From: a phage
Length of the DNA: 64,000 nt
Sequence record: PZ347661.1
Reading direction: 5' to 3' (one strand)
Part shown: positions 10,658-22,361 of the stretch, piece after piece
How the letters are laid out: each line of letters opens with the position of its first letter
Position numbering within the stretch: the first letter of the stretch is position 1
The notes under the pieces: generated by a model
Database searches by the model: none
What the model saw: the letters and a program-made list of their open reading frames with translations, nothing else
What the model was told of the DNA's origin: nothing
Translations under genes and position numbers: made by a program

Positions 10658-12694
10658 ATGAAAATCGAACTGATTTCTATCATCGCACTGGCAGTTGACA
10701 GTCGTAACCTTACACTGTGGAAGCCCGATGGCTCCACGCTTATATATCCTCAGAGCGATCCACGGGTTGCTCGTATTGTATCTGAAGCACAAACCAAAGG
10801 TCTGGGAACTACCAAAGACCAAATAGAAGTGAATATTGCACCAGAAGTAAACCTGCGTACTGAATATCTGGAAGCAGAGAAGAACACTAATGGATTCGTC
10901 CGTTTCTTCAAGGTAGCTAAAGCTAAACTTATGGAGTTCTTTCAGGATGGTACAGGTGTTCCTCCTGCACGTATCGTCTCAGATATTAAGCTGGGTAACC
11001 CTACTAAGACGTTGGTATCTAAAGCCATGGATACCTTCCTGGCTGTACAAGCTAATGAACCAGAAGTAACTGTAACAGATGGTTTCTACGACAGACGAGA
11101 CAACCTGATGTGGGTTACTGGCTGGGATAAGGACCATAACCATCCTGCACTGGTTCGTTTTATCAATGACGTACTGCGTTGTGGTTATGACCATACCAAC
11201 CGTACTCTTGCACAGGAATGGCCTATTGCAATTCGTGCAGTATCCGATGATGAAATGGGTGAGTTTGCTAAACAAGCTCAGCACATCAAAGGAGTACACA
11301 TTGTATTTACCAGTCGTGATGTAACGCCATTTCCTTACGTAGAAGTAGTTAAAACTACGAACCAGGATAAGCTGGCTGCCGCTTCTGAGAAGCTGGCTGC
11401 ATTGGGGGCTATTAGTACTGATGATGCTAACTTCCACACTGATGTGAAGGAAGATGAAGTGGTTGTTGCTGTTACCAACAATGGGGTTATCCCTGGAGTT
11501 GAGAACCTGCATCGTCACTTGCGTCAATCTGCTCAGCTGAAAGACTACAAGGGCTTTACTAAGTTCCTTGAGCGTCTGGCTCCGGTTATTAAAGACCGTC
11601 TGCACTCAGTAGAAGACCTGATGAAGTTCATGGAGACTGCTGAACTGCCTATTGCCGATGATGGTTCAATCCTGTTCCTCAAACGCCTTAAGTCTAGTGG
11701 TATAGAAAACGGTAAACGTGTATTCGTTGACTGTCACTCAGGTAACATTCGTCAATGGGTAGGCTGTAAAGTGCAGGTACGTGAAGACCTGGTAGACCCT
11801 GACCGTCGTCAGGATTGTTCTAACGGTCTGCACGTAGCATCCATGAGCTATCTACGTGGCTTCGGTGGTAACGTAACTATCCTTGGTAAAGTAGCACCGG
11901 AAGATGTATTTGCTGTTCCTGAGTACAGCACTAATAAGATGCGTGTATCTGCATATCATATTATTGCTGAGCTACCCGAAGAGGAACGTAATAACGTTAA
12001 CAACGGTATCTATCTTTCTAAAACTGAAGTAGGTAAAAAGCTACTTAATGATGCCATCGTTGGGAACCATAGTTCACCTACCACACTTATTATGGTTGGT
12101 GGTCATTATGGTACTAACCTCAAATACACCAATCTATCTTCTGGTTCCGTAGAACAATTCCGTACAGTTGCTAGTAAAGAAGCACTGAATATGGAAGAGT
12201 CACTGAATGAAGCTGTAGCTGCTGAACCAGTGAAAGCTACTGACCTTAAACCTATTAGTAAGAAGGCTCCTACTGTGAAAGAACAAATCCAGGAACTGGT
12301 TAAAGAGTTCCTTAATGCAACAACCCCTGAAGATAAGTTAGCTGCTGCTGACCTTCTGGTAGAACTGCGTGGTAAAGCTCGTAAGCCCTGGGGTGCATTC
12401 GACGTAGGTAGTGATGTAGTAGACGCTATTGCTACTATCCGTAGTACTCGCATTCCTGCACCAAAAGCTAAACCGGTGAAGGTAAGCAAACCTATTAAAA
12501 CTGCCCCTAAACCAATTAATGGAACACACGCTGATAATCTGCGTAGCATCCTGAACGATACGACGTACTCCGACTATCAGAAAGGCCATGCTCTGCAAGA
12601 CTATAAGCGTCATGCTAAGAAGTCATTCACTGCAATGGGTTTGACTGAAGAAGAAGCTAAATTAGCTACCAAACTGGTCAAAGCTGTTAAGTAA
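10658..12694 (+). CDS. rIIB: rIIB-like protein (putative)
   Basis: 678-aa ORF immediately downstream of the rIIA-like gene; assignment by synteny only. Confidence 0.45.
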   Translation: MKIELISIIALAVDSRNLTLWKPDGSTLIYPQSDPRVARIVSEAQTKGLGTTKDQIEVNIAPEVNLRTEYLEAEKNTNGFVRFFKVAKAKLMEFFQDGTGVPPARIVSDIKLGNPTKTLVSKAMDTFLAVQANEPEVTVTDGFYDRRDNLMWVTGWDKDHNHPALVRFINDVLRCGYDHTNRTLAQEWPIAIRAVSDDEMGEFAKQAQHIKGVHIVFTSRDVTPFPYVEVVKTTNQDKLAAASEKLAALGAISTDDANFHTDVKEDEVVVAVTNNGVIPGVENLHRHLRQSAQLKDYKGFTKFLERLAPVIKDRLHSVEDLMKFMETAELPIADDGSILFLKRLKSSGIENGKRVFVDCHSGNIRQWVGCKVQVREDLVDPDRRQDCSNGLHVASMSYLRGFGGNVTILGKVAPEDVFAVPEYSTNKMRVSAYHIIAELPEEERNNVNNGIYLSKTEVGKKLLNDAIVGNHSSPTTLIMVGGHYGTNLKYTNLSSGSVEQFRTVASKEALNMEESLNEAVAAEPVKATDLKPISKKAPTVKEQIQELVKEFLNATTPEDKLAAADLLVELRGKARKPWGAFDVGSDVVDAIATIRSTRIPAPKAKPVKVSKPIKTAPKPINGTHADNLRSILNDTTYSDYQKGHALQDYKRHAKKSFTAMGLTEEEAKLATKLVKAVK

Positions 12695-12706
12695 TAGCCT
12701 GTTCAA

Positions 12707-12740
12707 ATAGCCTCACTTATAATAAAGTGAGGCTATCTTT
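12707..12740 (+). terminator. stem-loop terminator candidate
   Basis: 12-bp stem ATAGCCTCACTT / AAGTGAGGCTAT with 6-nt loop, then CTTT. Confidence 0.5.
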
Positions 12741-12756
12741 GAAGAGGAAATAAGCT

Positions 12757-13152
12757 ATGTCTAAAGTATTCAGAAGTAATCGCAAAGCAACTGATGAAGA
12801 CATCATTCGTATGAATGCTGTTGGTCTATCCCTCGCAACTATCGCTAAGACGTTGGGGGTTCACCCCACTACGGTTACTTTGCGATTGCGTTCTCTAAAC
12901 ATTGAACCAGCCGACACACGTCGGACGTTCATGGAAAACGTATTACGACCTTTACCAACCCATGTGGCTGATTGGCTATCGGAACAAGTTGGTCCTGCTT
13001 ATGAGATTCGCTCATATGTAAGAGACTTGATTCTGGAGGCATATAATAATCGCCACCTTAACCAAGAGAGTGAGCATGACAAGTTCATCCGTTTGTACGC
13101 TGGCAAATACGGAAGCCTGGTTCCGGAAAGCAGTACCAAATCCAACGAGTAA
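12757..13152 (+). CDS. helix-turn-helix DNA-binding protein
   Basis: HTH-like segment DEDIIRMNAVGLSLATIAKTLGVHPTTVTLRL. Confidence 0.45.
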   Translation: MSKVFRSNRKATDEDIIRMNAVGLSLATIAKTLGVHPTTVTLRLRSLNIEPADTRRTFMENVLRPLPTHVADWLSEQVGPAYEIRSYVRDLILEAYNNRHLNQESEHDKFIRLYAGKYGSLVPESSTKSNE

Positions 13153-13537
13153 GAACATTAGTACCCAGATTGGCTGCCATCTGGAAGAAGTATGTGAAAT
13201 GTTAGATGAGTTAACCCCATCCTGCGAGGATAGTATGCAAGTGTTAGCCGATGCACAGGCTGCTTTGGGTAAATTATCTCTGCTAATGAAATCAAACCAC
13301 ATGGCTATCTTCCCAGCGAATAGCAATCGCTTAGCTTTGCTGGATTCACTGGCAGACCAGATTGTTACAGCAACTGGCGTCGGTACTTTCCTTGGGATGA
13401 ATGTCTCTGGAGCATTGGCTGAAGTCAATCGCTCAAACTATTCTAAGTTTGAAGATGGAGAACCTGTCTTCAATGAGAACATGAAAGTTATGAAAGGGAA
13501 AGACTACACTCCCCCAGATTTAACGCCATATATCTGA
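13070..13537 (+). CDS. MazG-like nucleotide pyrophosphohydrolase (putative)
   Basis: Acidic EExxE-type motif HLEEVCEMLDEL and later LAEVNRSNYSKF; start uncertain, overlaps upstream gene in another frame. Confidence 0.35.
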   Translation: MSMTSSSVCTLANTEAWFRKAVPNPTSKNISTQIGCHLEEVCEMLDELTPSCEDSMQVLADAQAALGKLSLLMKSNHMAIFPANSNRLALLDSLADQIVTATGVGTFLGMNVSGALAEVNRSNYSKFEDGEPVFNENMKVMKGKDYTPPDLTPYI

Positions 13538-13544
13538 GGTACAT

Positions 13545-13679
13545 ATGACTGAAGATTTTCTGACATGGTTTGAAAAGACTTTTCCCGTGCATCTTTGGCC
13601 CTCTGAAGAGGAACGGGAGGAACTAAAAACCTACACCTGGCTTGCTTGGCGTGATGCCAAAAGAGTAACTACTTAAAAA
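13545..13679 (+). CDS. small hypothetical protein (44 aa)
   Basis: ATG 13545 preceded by GAGGT; ORF ends just before terminator 13681-13701; below the ORF-track size cutoff. Confidence 0.3.
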
Positions 13680-13680
13680 C

Positions 13681-13701
13681 AACCCTCTACGGAGGGTTTT
13701 T
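13681..13701 (+). terminator. rho-independent terminator
   Basis: AACCCTC-tacg-GAGGGTT followed by TTTTT. Confidence 0.7.
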
Positions 13702-13714
13702 ACTGGAGATTTTA

Positions 13715-15025
13715 ATGTTTTCCAAACCTACCAAAGCCCCGCTGAACAAGGGGCAAGAAGCGGTTGCGAAGGAGTTCTTCGACTTCCTGCTCAACCCTAA
13801 TGCTACCGAATTCAATATTAGTGGCCCAGGGGGAACTGGCAAGACATTCCTGATGTCGCACCTCATTGATGACACAATGCCTGCATATATGGAAACTTGC
13901 TCCCTTATGGGAACCAAGTCTCTGTATAACGAAGTTGTTATGACTGCGACCACGAACAAAGCTGCTGAAGTTCTGGCTCAGGCTACTGGACGTCCTACAT
14001 CTACTTATCATTCCTTCCAGGGATTGATTGTTAAGAATGACTTTAAGACTGGTGAGGCTAATGTCGTACCATCTAAATCATTCAATATTAAGAAGAACAA
14101 AATCATCTTCGTAGATGAAGCATCCATGATTGACCGTCAGTTACTTAAGTATGCCCGTGAAGGTACTCACCAGTGCAAACTGGTATTTGTAGGAGATGCT
14201 TCCCAGCTTCTGCCTGTTAAAGAGAATAAGTCTCCAGTGTATGCAGGTAATATCCCAACACACTATCTGACTGAACAGATGCGTACCGATGTACCGGAAC
14301 TCAAAGCATTGAACCAGCAATTGCGTGATACGGTAGAAGGTAAGACAGGCTTCCTGCCTATTAAGTGTATTCCAGGCATCATTGATTGGGTACAGGGGGA
14401 AGAGATGGAGAAACTGGTTCTCAGTCACTTCACTCAACCTACTAATAGCCGTATTGTTGCTTACACAAATGACCAGGTTATTAATTACAATAACTACATT
14501 CGTGAAGCTAATGGCTACGTGGGTGAGTACTCCATTGGTGAACAGCTAGTCTCTAACTCTGCTATTCGCTTAGGTGTGGATAATCGTCTGTCTATCGAAC
14601 AAGACGTAAAACTCATCGACCAGGATAGCAGTACTCGCATGATTAAGGTTACAGGTGACCTGGAACTGGAAGTTCGTGATAGTACTCTGGACCTTGGTTA
14701 TGGTGGTATTGTAAGTGAAGTTCCTGTTCCTACTGACCCAGACTACTTCAACCGTTTGGTTAAGTGGTTAGGTAAAGAGAAGAACTGGGAACCTTACTTC
14801 CGTCTTAAAGAAACCATTCCAGACCTGCGTGCTACTCATGCATGTACTGTCCATAAATCACAAGGCTCTACTTACGACACAATCTTCATTGATGCAGATG
14901 ACCTCTCAAGCTGTCGCCAACCTGATATGGTTGCTCGTCTGCTTTACGTCGCTGTGTCCCGTGCGCGTAAGCGAGTAGTGTTCTATGGCAATCTTGCCAG
15001 TAAGTATGGTGGTCTAACTTTCTAA
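13715..15025 (+). CDS. SF1 DNA helicase (Dda/RecD-like)
   Basis: Walker A GPGGTGKTF, Walker B IIFVDEASMI, C-terminal motif ATHACTVHKSQGSTYD. Confidence 0.75.
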   Translation: MFSKPTKAPLNKGQEAVAKEFFDFLLNPNATEFNISGPGGTGKTFLMSHLIDDTMPAYMETCSLMGTKSLYNEVVMTATTNKAAEVLAQATGRPTSTYHSFQGLIVKNDFKTGEANVVPSKSFNIKKNKIIFVDEASMIDRQLLKYAREGTHQCKLVFVGDASQLLPVKENKSPVYAGNIPTHYLTEQMRTDVPELKALNQQLRDTVEGKTGFLPIKCIPGIIDWVQGEEMEKLVLSHFTQPTNSRIVAYTNDQVINYNNYIREANGYVGEYSIGEQLVSNSAIRLGVDNRLSIEQDVKLIDQDSSTRMIKVTGDLELEVRDSTLDLGYGGIVSEVPVPTDPDYFNRLVKWLGKEKNWEPYFRLKETIPDLRATHACTVHKSQGSTYDTIFIDADDLSSCRQPDMVARLLYVAVSRARKRVVFYGNLASKYGGLTF

Positions 15026-19699: not shown

Positions 19700-20211
19700 G
19701 TAAGCTGACCCAGCAACGTCTGAAAGAATTACTGCATTATGATGCTCAAACTGGCATCTTCACTCGTCGTATATCTCTCAGTAATCGCACACCAGTAGGT
19801 AGCATTGCTGGGTCAGTTAACAAGAGTGACGGCTATATCTATATAACTGTTGATGCCAAACGGGAAGCTGCTCACAGATTAGCTTGGTTCTATGTATATG
19901 GGGTATGGCCAGAAGGTCTTTTAGACCATAAGGACACTATTAAAACCCATAACTGGATAGACAATCTGAGAGAAGCCGATAAAAGTACTAACGGAGCTAA
20001 CCGTGGACTGAATAAAAACAACACTACAGGTTTTATGGGTGTTACAAAATTCAGGAGTGGATACCGAGCAGCAATTAAGGTAAACCACAAATCACATTTT
20101 CTAGGTGTATTCCCAGATGTAGTAGAGGCAGCTAAGGTATACGACAAAGCTGCATTAGAACATTTTGGGGAATTTGCCGTTACTAACATGAGCTTAGGAT
20201 TATTTAAATGA
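19696..20211 (+). CDS. HNH-AP2 homing endonuclease
   Basis: HNH_3-like AHRLAWFYVYG...DHKD...NWIDNLR plus AP2-like GVTKFRSGYRAAIKVNHKSHFLGVFPDVVEAAKVYDKAALEHFG; ATGA overlaps at both ends. Confidence 0.7.
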   Translation: MSKLTQQRLKELLHYDAQTGIFTRRISLSNRTPVGSIAGSVNKSDGYIYITVDAKREAAHRLAWFYVYGVWPEGLLDHKDTIKTHNWIDNLREADKSTNGANRGLNKNNTTGFMGVTKFRSGYRAAIKVNHKSHFLGVFPDVVEAAKVYDKAALEHFGEFAVTNMSLGLFK

Positions 20212-22361
20212 GTATTGACCTTACTGGCATAAGTCACCACCCTGCAATTGAAGAAATTGTAGACGTGCTGTGTAACAAGACACAAAACAACGACAGAGGA
20301 TTCTTCCGTGTCGAAGTAGCCTACTTCCTGGCTAAAATGGCATCCTGTATGGGTGCAACCATTGTCACTAAAGACCGTGGTGACTTACCAGTCAACATTT
20401 ACGCTATGGCATTAGCAACGTCTGGCTTCGGTAAAGGTCACTCGGTAAATATTATTGAAGACGGATTTATGACTGGCTTCCGTAAACGCTTTATGGAAGA
20501 CACCATGCCCGTCATTGCAAATGACCGTTTATGGAAGATTGCTAACGAACGTGCTGCTCGTCAGGGTACAGACCAGAATGATGAGTTTGATAAAGTTGAG
20601 GCAGAGTATAAGCGTGCTGGAGCATATCCGTTTACGTTTGACTCAGGTACTCCACCAGCAGTTAAACAATTACGTCACAAGCTGTTAATGGCTGGGTGTG
20701 GTTCAATCAACCTTCAGATTGATGAGATTGGTTCAAACCTGTTAGCTAACACAGATGTATTAACCCTGTTCCTGGAGCTATATGACCAGGGTAAGGTTAA
20801 GCAGAAGCTAACCAAAAACACTGCTGAAAGTGTTCGTGGAGAAGAACTGGATGGTAAGACTCCAGCTAACCTGTTGTTGTTTGGTACACCAAGTAAGCTA
20901 CTGGATGGTGGTCAGACCGAAGATCAGTTCTATGACTTCCTCGATACAGGGTATGCACGTCGCTGTCTGTTTGCCATTGGGCATTTAGACAAACGAGCAC
21001 ATGCAACAATGTCTCCGGAAGAAATCTACCGTAACCTGATTAAACAGGATAACGTGCAGTCTCTTGGCAAGTGGGCTAATCATTTCCATAGTCTGGCTGA
21101 CCCAAACCTGTTTGGTTTTAAAATGGTTGTGGAAGATGCTGTGGGGATTGCTCTGATTACTTACAAGATTGATTGTGAGAAACAGGCAGAGGCTATGGCT
21201 GACCACGAAGAGATTCGTAAGGCTGAAATTTCACACCGTTACTTCAAAGCTCTTAAGCTGGCAGGAGCACTGGCATTTGTTGACCAGAGTTCATTCATTG
21301 AGATGTCCCATCTTAAACAAGCAATCCTGCTTGTAGAGGAATCTGGAGCAGCATTCCAGGGTATTCTCAATCGTGAGAAAGCCTATGTGAAGCTGGCTAA
21401 GTACATTGCCTCTGTAGGTAAAGAAGTAACTCATGCTGACTTGCTGGAGTCATTGCCTTTCTATAAGAGCGGTAATGCAGCTCGTAATGAGATGATGACT
21501 CTTGCTACAGCATGGGGTTACAAACAGCACATCATCATTAAGAAAACCTTCAATGAAGGTATTGAGTTCTTCCGTGGTGAGACTCTGAAAGAAACTGACA
21601 TCAATGAGATGATAGTGGCATATAGTGATAGCTTTGCTTATGACTACATTGGTGAACGTGTACCGTTCGACCAGTTGCATGTATTAACCCAAGCTCCCGG
21701 TATGCACTGGGTAAACCATCATATGAAGAATGGGCATCGTTCTGAAGAGAACGTTATTCCAGGATTTAACATGATTGTTATTGACTGTGATGGTGGAGTA
21801 CCACTGCATATGTGCCATGAACTGATGAAGGAATATAAGTTCATGACCTATACCACTAAACGTCATTCTGATGAAGAGAACCGATTCCGACTGATTATTC
21901 CAATGAACTATGAGTTACACCTCGACACTGAGGAATACAAAGAGTTCATGAATAACGTTATGTCTTGGCTACCGTTCGAAACGGATGAGTCTGCTAATCA
22001 GCGAGCCAAGAAGTGGATGTCCTGCGAGATTGGTTCCTATCATTACAATCTTGAAGCAAATCTGTTGGATGTGCGTGACTTTATTCCTCGTACTAGTAAG
22101 AACGAGCAGTTCCGGAACCAGATGAAGGAAGTACAGTCGTTGGATAATCTGGAGCGTTGGTTCGCTAGTCGTATTGCTACCGGTAATCGTAATAATCAAA
22201 TGATTAAGTACGCACTGGCATTGGTTGACAGTGGTTGGGATTTTGCCCAAGTACAGCAAGCCGTCCACTCATTCAATAAGAAACTGGTTAATCCATTGCC
22301 AGATGATGAATTGAATGCAACCGTAATGGTCACCGTGGCTAAACGCTTCGCTGGCAAGTAA
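20208..22361 (+). CDS. primase-like replication protein (putative)
   Basis: 717 aa; IVIDCDGG acidic motif and C-terminal helical region; position between nuclease and recombination genes. Confidence 0.4.
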   Translation: MSIDLTGISHHPAIEEIVDVLCNKTQNNDRGFFRVEVAYFLAKMASCMGATIVTKDRGDLPVNIYAMALATSGFGKGHSVNIIEDGFMTGFRKRFMEDTMPVIANDRLWKIANERAARQGTDQNDEFDKVEAEYKRAGAYPFTFDSGTPPAVKQLRHKLLMAGCGSINLQIDEIGSNLLANTDVLTLFLELYDQGKVKQKLTKNTAESVRGEELDGKTPANLLLFGTPSKLLDGGQTEDQFYDFLDTGYARRCLFAIGHLDKRAHATMSPEEIYRNLIKQDNVQSLGKWANHFHSLADPNLFGFKMVVEDAVGIALITYKIDCEKQAEAMADHEEIRKAEISHRYFKALKLAGALAFVDQSSFIEMSHLKQAILLVEESGAAFQGILNREKAYVKLAKYIASVGKEVTHADLLESLPFYKSGNAARNEMMTLATAWGYKQHIIIKKTFNEGIEFFRGETLKETDINEMIVAYSDSFAYDYIGERVPFDQLHVLTQAPGMHWVNHHMKNGHRSEENVIPGFNMIVIDCDGGVPLHMCHELMKEYKFMTYTTKRHSDEENRFRLIIPMNYELHLDTEEYKEFMNNVMSWLPFETDESANQRAKKWMSCEIGSYHYNLEANLLDVRDFIPRTSKNEQFRNQMKEVQSLDNLERWFASRIATGNRNNQMIKYALALVDSGWDFAQVQQAVHSFNKKLVNPLPDDELNATVMVTVAKRFAGK

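Follow-up and report, generated by a model that had tools for sequence, protein, structure and literature searches.

The window analysed here is a stretch of 64,000 nucleotides (nt) of phage DNA (sequence record PZ347661.1), and our subject is a junction in it at which two genes share sequence in different frames. In the list of open reading frames (ORFs) of the window, 12757-13152 encodes 131 amino acids (aa) and 13070-13537 encodes 155 aa; both ORFs are on the + strand. They are homologous to gp35 and gp36 of phage N4 and are called gp35 and gp36 below. Megablast placed the region in Gamaleyavirus (G7C-like, N4-like Schitoviridae), with 95-97% identity to PW8, nithesis and IME11; the search matched 75 phage records. 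The pair is flanked by rIIB upstream (10658-12694) and a Dda/RecD-like helicase gene downstream (13715-15025), the same order as in N4. A first-pass annotation of the window had noted that the two ORFs overlap by about 80 nt in different frames, and its coordinates were confirmed. The second ORF opens with a GTG at 13070 and has an ATG two codons on, at 13076; the two ORFs share 83 nt if the second is counted from the GTG and 77 nt if it is counted from the ATG. Because 12757 is 1 modulo 3 and 13076 is 2 modulo 3, gp36 is shifted by +1 relative to gp35. The features of the junction are listed in Table 1.

Table 1. Coordinates of the features at and near the gp35-gp36 junction.
Feature	Position	Strand	Remark
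gp35: N4 gp35-like small helical protein, putative helix-turn-helix (HTH), 131 aa	12757..13152	+	ORF list, PHROG 6377
gp36: N4 gp36-like putative nucleotide pyrophosphohydrolase of MazG type; 153 aa when read from the conserved ATG	13076..13537	+	in-frame GTG 13070 not conserved
77-nt dual-coding stretch	13076..13152	+	gp35 codons 107-131 and stop; gp36 codons 1-26, +1 frame
Shine-Dalgarno (SD)-like purine-rich tract for gp36, AAGAGAGTGAG (candidate)	13064..13074	+	inside gp35 loop codons ~103-106
Last conserved helix of gp35, residues 106-118, EHDKFIRLYAGKY	13072..13110	+	same bases carry gp36 start and unconserved N-terminus
C-terminal tail of gp35, residues 119-131, GSLVPESSTKSNE, and TAA stop	13111..13152	+	gp36 -1 frame
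N-terminal tryptic peptide of gp36 (predicted), (M)TSSSVCTLANTEAWFR			
Hairpin GCCTCACTT-ATAATA-AAGTGAGGC	12710..12733	+	between rIIB and gp35; upstream edge of gp35-gp36 block

Both genes were located by tblastn in 68 sequences and each frame was read through to its stop (L-numbers, such as L068, label the loci compared with the window). The 26 loci of Enquatrovirinae type belong to Gamaleyavirus, Enquatrovirus and Klebsiella Kaypoctavirus. Among them, the overlap was 77 nt long at 21 loci and 86 nt at three, always in +1 phase, and the remaining two (L021 and L022) have an HNH gene inserted between the pair. In the window, the gp35 stop, TAA at 13150, spans the Ser25-Lys26 codons of gp36 (AGT AAG); in the Klebsiella phages it spans a His-Lys pair (CAT AAA). 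The gp35 and gp36 genes of N4 and G7C are orthologous to the window pair (77% and 66-72% identity) and resemble it in the synteny of rIIB, gp35, gp36 and Dda-like helicase, in the 77 nt, in the +1 phase and in the gp36 Ser-Lys codon pair on which gp35 stops. Unlike them, the window has a further in-frame GTG two codons before the ATG and a further 43-aa ORF after gp36, and its SD-like tract is weaker. We consider it very probable that the window holds a genuine, conserved out-of-frame overlap of 77 nt between two separately translated genes. Of the three causes that the first-pass annotation had suggested, the genuine long overlap is the one that was borne out: the same 77 nt and the same phase recur at those 21 of 26 loci, and both frames carry conserved sequence. 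The overlap is already known, as it is annotated in the N4 and G7C reference genomes, and it is nothing new in kind. In N4 (NC_008720), gp35 is annotated at 20143..20538 and gp36 at 20462..20914, which gives 77 nt; the same overlap is annotated in G7C, 24-32N and Jura and is also called by PGAP. Literature searches for N4 gp35/gp36 or for the overlap found no paper that discusses it.

Most annotated overlaps of co-directional genes that exceed 60 bp in the genomes of bacteria are errors (PMC2478687). This favours the view that the overlap is an artefact of an insertion or deletion (indel) in sequencing or assembly, and a sequencing frameshift was also among the causes named in the first-pass annotation. 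Against it, three genera (N4, G7C-like and Klebsiella Kaypoctavirus) show the same frames and the same 77 nt in genomes that were sequenced independently. Across the region, the window also aligns without gaps to separately sequenced genomes that are 95-97% identical to it, and an alignment of its DNA with that of N4, G7C and a Klebsiella phage is gapless across the overlap. The gapless alignment therefore excludes a sequencing frameshift for practical purposes, and we give the artefact a negligible probability. Ortholog length has been used as a criterion of genuine overlap (Palleja et al. 2008). Within the Enquatrovirinae the lengths agree, with gp35 at 131 aa and gp36 at 150-153 aa in three genera, and the agreement fails in comparison with distant Schitoviridae, where gp35 has only ~100-110 aa. 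Since the lengths agree only within the Enquatrovirinae, the overlap is a lineage-specific 3′ extension of gp35.

The gp36 homologue matched PHROG 671, 'nucleotide pyrophosphohydrolase', with an E-value of 1.1e-31 over residues 6-155, and there were weak matches to the MazG-like PHROGs 12019 (3.5e-4) and 2144 (3.4e-3). No Pfam or NCBIfam family matched it at E <= 0.1. A profile search of PDB sequences gave no significant match, only DR2231 at E ~0.6. Its predicted fold is an all-alpha helical bundle that resembles solved NTP pyrophosphohydrolases. In the model, a helix at residues 4-19 is followed by a helix at 25-43 that bears an invariant H-L-E-E-x-x-E, and residues 1-6 have a predicted local distance difference test (pLDDT) below 50. 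Protein alignments with homologues showed an invariant E-E-x-x-E (residues 37, 38 and 41) and an invariant D90...D94-Q95. The metal-binding motifs of the superfamily are ExxE and ExxD, and the second acidic motif of gp36 differs from the canonical ExxD. By analogy with the family, these acidic residues would bind metal and the protein may have pyrophosphohydrolase activity.

W17, F18 and P23 of gp36, numbered from GTG 13070 (W15, F16 and P21 from the ATG), are invariant in an alignment of 13 diverse homologues, and T14, A21 and P25 are nearly so. The invariance holds in a Vibrio phage and in Pseudomonas phage ZC08, both of which lack gp35. All six residues are encoded upstream of 13152, in agreement with the first-pass annotation, according to which the conserved-looking MazG-like part already begins inside the overlap. 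Comparatively, the residues before them are not conserved (MTSSSVCT versus MNDSSKDT). A tblastn search with gp36 against 50,697 phage records matched 337 of them, and most alignments started at query residue 8-9.

The start position of gp36 is an ATG in N4, G7C, the Klebsiella phages, L069 and L071, and a GTG in L074. In all of these, a purine tract of (A)GGA type lies 6-10 nt ahead of the start; the variants in relatives are AAGGAA, CAGGAA, TAGGAA and GAAGGAAG. The SD-like tract of the window is a candidate ribosome-binding site of gp36. GTG 13070 is not conserved, and N4 has CTG there; we therefore place the gp36 start at ATG 13076, which gives an overlap of 77 nt. From ATG 13076 to ATG 13199 there is no further start codon. 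In L074 (1120-1193), a metagenomic relative, gp36 has its GTG start where a Ser replaces a His in gp35, and the gene caller missed this start and reported a 109-aa product.

If gp36 started at ATG 13199 instead, and the upstream part of its ORF were untranslated, there would be no real overlap. A short form of 100-112 aa is annotated in several records, including PW8, UE-S5a and ECBP1_0042, and the SD-like tract before 13076 is weak in the window. However, gp36 residues 8-41 are the best-conserved N-terminal block, also where nothing overlaps them, and variation in this stretch follows the gp36 codon phase. A start at 13199 would also remove the invariant H35-L-E-E-x-x-E41 segment, everything up to M42, and predicted helices 1 and 2, with no start codon between 13076 and 13199 to rescue them. 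We regard the short gp36 as very unlikely.

The annotation of the pyrophosphohydrolase gene is inconsistent among relatives, as in PQ362703 (L002, 2136-2438), PP175015 (L004, 2100-2438), ECBP1_0042 (P0142) and MK962632 (L006, 873-1460 and 1501-1650). Several records cut the gene to 100-112 aa and thereby avoid the overlap. In the record of Achromobacter phage Axy13, a 195-aa ORF in the gp35 frame and a 49-aa fragment stand in place of the full gene. The main value of our result is for annotation, in the correct gp36 start. As the overlap is real, annotators should not avoid it by cutting the pyrophosphohydrolase gene to 100-112 aa, as several records do, nor should they drop the gene for a long ORF in the gp35 frame, as has happened in some records of Achromobacter phages.

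The gp35 homologue matched PHROG 6377 with an E-value of 2.3e-74 over residues 1-131 of the 131-position profile and is 77% identical to N4 gp35. Full-length similarity and its place between rIIB and gp36 both agree with membership of this family. Matches to Pfam HTH families were below the curated thresholds (HTH_38, 21 bits with a cut-off of 27; HTH_23, 19.9 with a cut-off of 24.6). In a Foldseek comparison, the HTH domains of NarL, AsnC and Mos1 were matched with a probability of 0.85-0.94, although with E > 0.4 and over only 38-56 residues. We call it a small helical protein with a putative HTH. The AlphaFold model has a pLDDT of 80-92 for residues 11-100. The last 16 residues (116-131) have a pLDDT below 50 and are predicted to be disordered. 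Database homologues of gp35 are mostly ~100-110 aa long and share a core at query residues 1-98 (among the best 120 of 419 matches). Among relatives, gp35 length ranges from 118 to 195 aa and the length of the tail varies.

N4, the Klebsiella phages, the Achromobacter phages and L068 retain the gp35 motif ER[FH]L[KA][KR]Y within the last helix, and the gp36 start codon sits where the motif ER[FH]L..Y begins. The segment changes conservatively (HDKFIRLY, HERFLKRY, YERHLAKY, HEQLLKRY). In L068, the motif (AERFLKRY) lies entirely upstream of gp36, with no overlap; therefore ER[FH]L..Y is conserved for gp35's own sake. The idea that the similarity between Achromobacter and N4 gp35 tails is an alignment artefact was dropped, because the comparison at the DNA level and L068 show real conservation in the gp35 frame.

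We surveyed which frame is constrained where by computing the diversity at each codon position from 19 distinct Enquatrovirinae sequences. In the non-overlapping part of gp35, diversity at positions 1, 2 and 3 of the gp35 frame was 0.13, 0.07 and 0.43, a pattern typical of purifying selection. In the whole overlap, the corresponding values in the gp35 frame were 0.37, 0.19 and 0.23. In the gp36 frame, codons 9-25 of gp36 gave 0.18, 0.19 and 0.40, and codons 2-8 gave no clear periodicity, over seven codons only. Thus, within the overlap the most variable class is gp35 position 1, which is gp36 position 3, and the periodicity switches to the gp36 phase. Because of this switch, the conserved gp35 helix motif, the variable gp36 N-terminus and the disordered gp35 tail, we conclude that constraint is partitioned between the two genes within the overlap.

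These observations can be put together as follows. The N4 gp35 and gp36 homologues would be two separate cistrons on one mRNA. Ribosomes that translate gp35 would read through to TAA 13150, and other ribosomes would initiate independently at ATG 13076, using the SD-like tract within the gp35 coding sequence; no recoding would be involved. Termination-reinitiation coupling does not fit the window, where the gp35 stop (13150) is 74 nt downstream of the gp36 start (13076). Over the first ~35 nt of the overlap, the last conserved helix of gp35 would lie on the variable, disordered N-terminus of gp36. Over the remaining ~42 nt, the first conserved helix of gp36 (TL..T..WF.KAVPNPT) would lie on a disordered, acidic or polar gp35 tail. 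The sequence of this tail would be largely dictated by gp36, and its length has not stayed fixed in evolution. The overlap would then be a read-on of gp35 across the 5′ end of gp36 that is lineage-specific and tolerated, and the distal tail probably has little or no function.

Several points weigh against this account. Both initiation at 13076 and the presence of the tail in the mature gp35 protein are read from the sequence. The SD-like tract of the window (AAGAGAG) is weaker than those of its relatives. The gp35 helix at 106-118 is predicted by AlphaFold only at low confidence, with a mean pLDDT of 59 for the block 101-110 and 50 for the block 111-120. In addition, two results hint that the gp35 tail may not be entirely neutral. 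When the synonymous codons of the first 26 gp36 codons were resampled with the codon usage of the window, the gp35 frame stayed open for >= 25 codons with a probability of only 0.013-0.18, depending on the clade. Among 25 distinct codon states at the stop-risk positions of the overlap, none ended in T. For comparison, T-ending codons made up 20 of 54 downstream of the gp35 stop and 13 of 40 at the non-risk positions of the overlap.

The last two results favour the possibility that the long overlap itself is selected, either because the gp35 tail is functional, for instance as an acidic regulatory tail, or because ribosomes that translate gp35 pass over the gp36 initiation site and so adjust the gp36:gp35 ratio. 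If this is true, its signature would be that T-ending codons which create stops are avoided at all risk positions of the first 24 gp36 codons. Codon choice also varied with context: TTC before AAx and TTT before CTG or CGG; ACG or ACC before GAA and ACT before CAG. Furthermore, the position of the gp35 stop is identical in three genera, and the gp35 tails are acidic or polar in all lineages. On the other hand, the amino acids of the tail change at a rate near the background synonymous rate of gp36 (pi 0.40 at gp35 position 1), and the tail is predicted to be disordered. In natural relatives the tail is truncated (overlaps of 41 and 53 nt), exchanged for another end with an HNH insertion (gp35 of 123 aa) or absent (8 nt). 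The statistics on stop avoidance take only sequences that are related and have an open frame, and they ignore phylogeny; Fisher tests in single genomes gave only P = 0.03-0.3. We had taken stop avoidance as good evidence of selection on the tail, and downgraded it because relatives have earlier stops (L069 and L071) and the test presupposes an open frame. A selected overlap would be a refinement of the tolerated read-on rather than an exclusive rival. We regard it as rather unlikely, and the statement that selection maintains the overlap in the N4, G7C and Kaypoctavirus lineages, through a function of the tail or through the gp36:gp35 ratio, as slightly less likely again. Selection on the gp35 tail or on the overlap is possible but unproven.

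The remaining cause proposed by the first-pass annotation was a programmed frameshift that produces a fusion. By this explanation, +1 (or -2) frameshifting or transcriptional slippage in 13031-13150 would make a gp35-gp36 fusion, which would accompany or replace the separate products. As the gp36 frame is already open at 13031 (45 nt before its ATG), a shift anywhere in ~120 nt would fuse the two proteins; the +1 phase is also constant in all long overlaps. However, a fusion needs a +1 or -2 shift, and a -1 shift would enter the third frame. The first-pass annotation had recommended a search for slippery heptamers. No X XXY YYZ heptamer in any register was found in 13020-13160, nor was there a homopolymer run of >= 4. 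No in-frame stop or other known +1 signal occurs in the gp35 frame before 13150. The minimum free energy of the RNA fold of 13030-13160 was -24.8 kcal/mol, compared with -24.2 kcal/mol for shuffled sequences (z = -0.18); as a mask of the gp36 start, this fold was likewise no better than the shuffles. No fused homologue was seen: the longest match was 195 aa for gp35 (among the best 120 of 419) and 159 aa for gp36 (among the best 120 of 611). The gp35 forms of the 195-aa class are read-through ORFs of Achromobacter phages in the gp35 frame and not fusions. In addition, gp36 has kept a start codon and an SD-like tract of its own. Lineages in which an HNH gene separates gp35 from gp36, or in which the two overlap by only 8 nt, could not use any shift site in the stretch. 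A programmed fusion thus found no support and is, in our judgement, highly improbable.

We compared the junction across the Schitoviridae. From the gp35 stop to the gp36 start, it ranges from a gap of 42 nt to an overlap of 269 nt, and all overlaps longer than 4 nt are in +1 phase. The overlap is 4 nt in Pseudomonas phage Zuri, 8 nt in Erwinia phage Rexella and at least 56 nt in Stenotrophomonas phage C121. In the GC-rich Achromobacter phages, the gp35 frame extends 185-269 nt into gp36. Among relatives whose gp35 is 65-84% identical, the overlap is 8 nt in L068, 14 nt in L072, 41 nt in L069, 53 nt in L071 and 74 nt in L074. Zuri, Rexella and L068 do have junctions of the termination-reinitiation type. 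As read from the sequences, the earlier stops of L069 and L071 arise where a gp36 codon ending in T precedes one that begins with GA or AA. Two separate, non-overlapping genes in homologues, together with a frame changed on resequencing, were, for the first-pass annotation, to count against a real overlap. Nearly separate genes do occur in some distant homologues, but this reflects the lability of the junction and not a sequence error.

In a DNA alignment, L068 (1484-1650) has 27 nt more than the 77-nt type (window, 13040-13175). The 27-nt indel contains an SD sequence (GAAGGAAG), the gp36 ATG and the gp35 TAA, and it is flanked by an imperfect direct repeat (AACGTTAC/AACGATAC). As the indel lies between short repeats, one deletion or insertion can interconvert the 8-nt and 77-nt layouts. 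This suggests that the long overlap arose or was resolved in one step through the 27-nt indel, in either direction.

The junction is also a site of insertion. An endonuclease gene with an HNH_3 (and AP2) domain lies between gp35 and gp36 in L021 (1856-2338), L022 and L070 (1575-2054), and in these three gp35 has 118-123 aa with an altered end. In L072, the gene after gp35 is likewise an endonuclease (from 1559). In some close relatives, a homing-endonuclease insert sits exactly at the gp35/gp36 junction. The insert of L021 begins after gp36 codon ~13 and is followed by a replacement 5′ end of gp36 (MSDIITQTKKWF...). Because of this position, the endonuclease ORF is in frame with the original ATG of gp36.

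Long overlaps are familiar in viruses. Among 338 prokaryotic genomes, no genuine co-directional overlap longer than 60 bp was found, and the longest real one was holD/rimI, with 32-56 bp (PMC2478687). Like the window pair, holD/rimI of Enterobacteria is a conserved out-of-frame head-to-tail overlap of unrelated proteins, with a length specific to the genus or lineage. The window overlap, at 77 nt, exceeds it in length (the ORFs of Achromobacter phages reach 269 nt) and is found in phage. Three phage genera have it as a fixed feature, unlike the errors catalogued in the same study. In the model of Fonseca, Harris and Posada (2013), same-strand overlaps become long when the upstream gene is elongated, one phase class accounts for the long ones, and no selection is invoked (PMC3887535). 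Their stop-loss model shares with the window the 3′ elongation into the neighbouring gene, the single long phase class and a length set by the next stop. The difference is that here a 27-nt indel appears to have taken stop, SD and ATG together, instead of a point mutation in the stop codon. Programmed-frameshift gene pairs of tailed phages, such as the tail assembly chaperones G/GT, also consist of two same-strand ORFs that overlap in different frames. In contrast to them, the window pair has no slippery site, would need a +1 shift, has no fusion homologues among the matches listed and has its own conserved downstream start, and its genes are not structural. The overlap is a well-sampled example in which the unconstrained, disordered end of each gene lies over a constrained helix of its partner, and in which the junction changes readily by an indel, by new stops and by homing-endonuclease insertion. 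No new biological question is opened by it.

Some features of the neighborhood were also recorded. The hairpin at 12710-12733 has a perfect 9-bp stem and a 6-nt loop and stands just past rIIB, 24 nt ahead of gp35. Its equivalent in G7C is annotated as a stem_loop. It was not called by our terminator scan; it could be a terminator or a regulatory hairpin of the N4 type. The only terminator-like site called in 12500-13800 was at 13681-13698 and was reported on the minus strand. A scan of 12500-13800 for sigma-70 promoters found none. The middle genes of N4 are transcribed by phage RNA polymerase, and this result is therefore uninformative.

Between gp36 and the helicase gene lies a 43-aa ORF (13545-13676; phrog_9481, function unassigned), and a GC-rich hairpin with a T-run follows directly after it (13681-13698). 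Among the 40 records listed, the DNA of this ORF was found only in PW8 and F22, and most Gamaleyavirus matches ended at query base 936. Finally, a chromosome assembly of Enterococcus faecium (2.76 Mb) contains rIIB, gp35, gp36, helicase and DNA polymerase genes like those of N4 and G7C (L073; CP043865.1, 2725095-2731550). This coliphage block is roughly 30 kb from the end of the contig, and the assembly is probably chimeric or contaminated.

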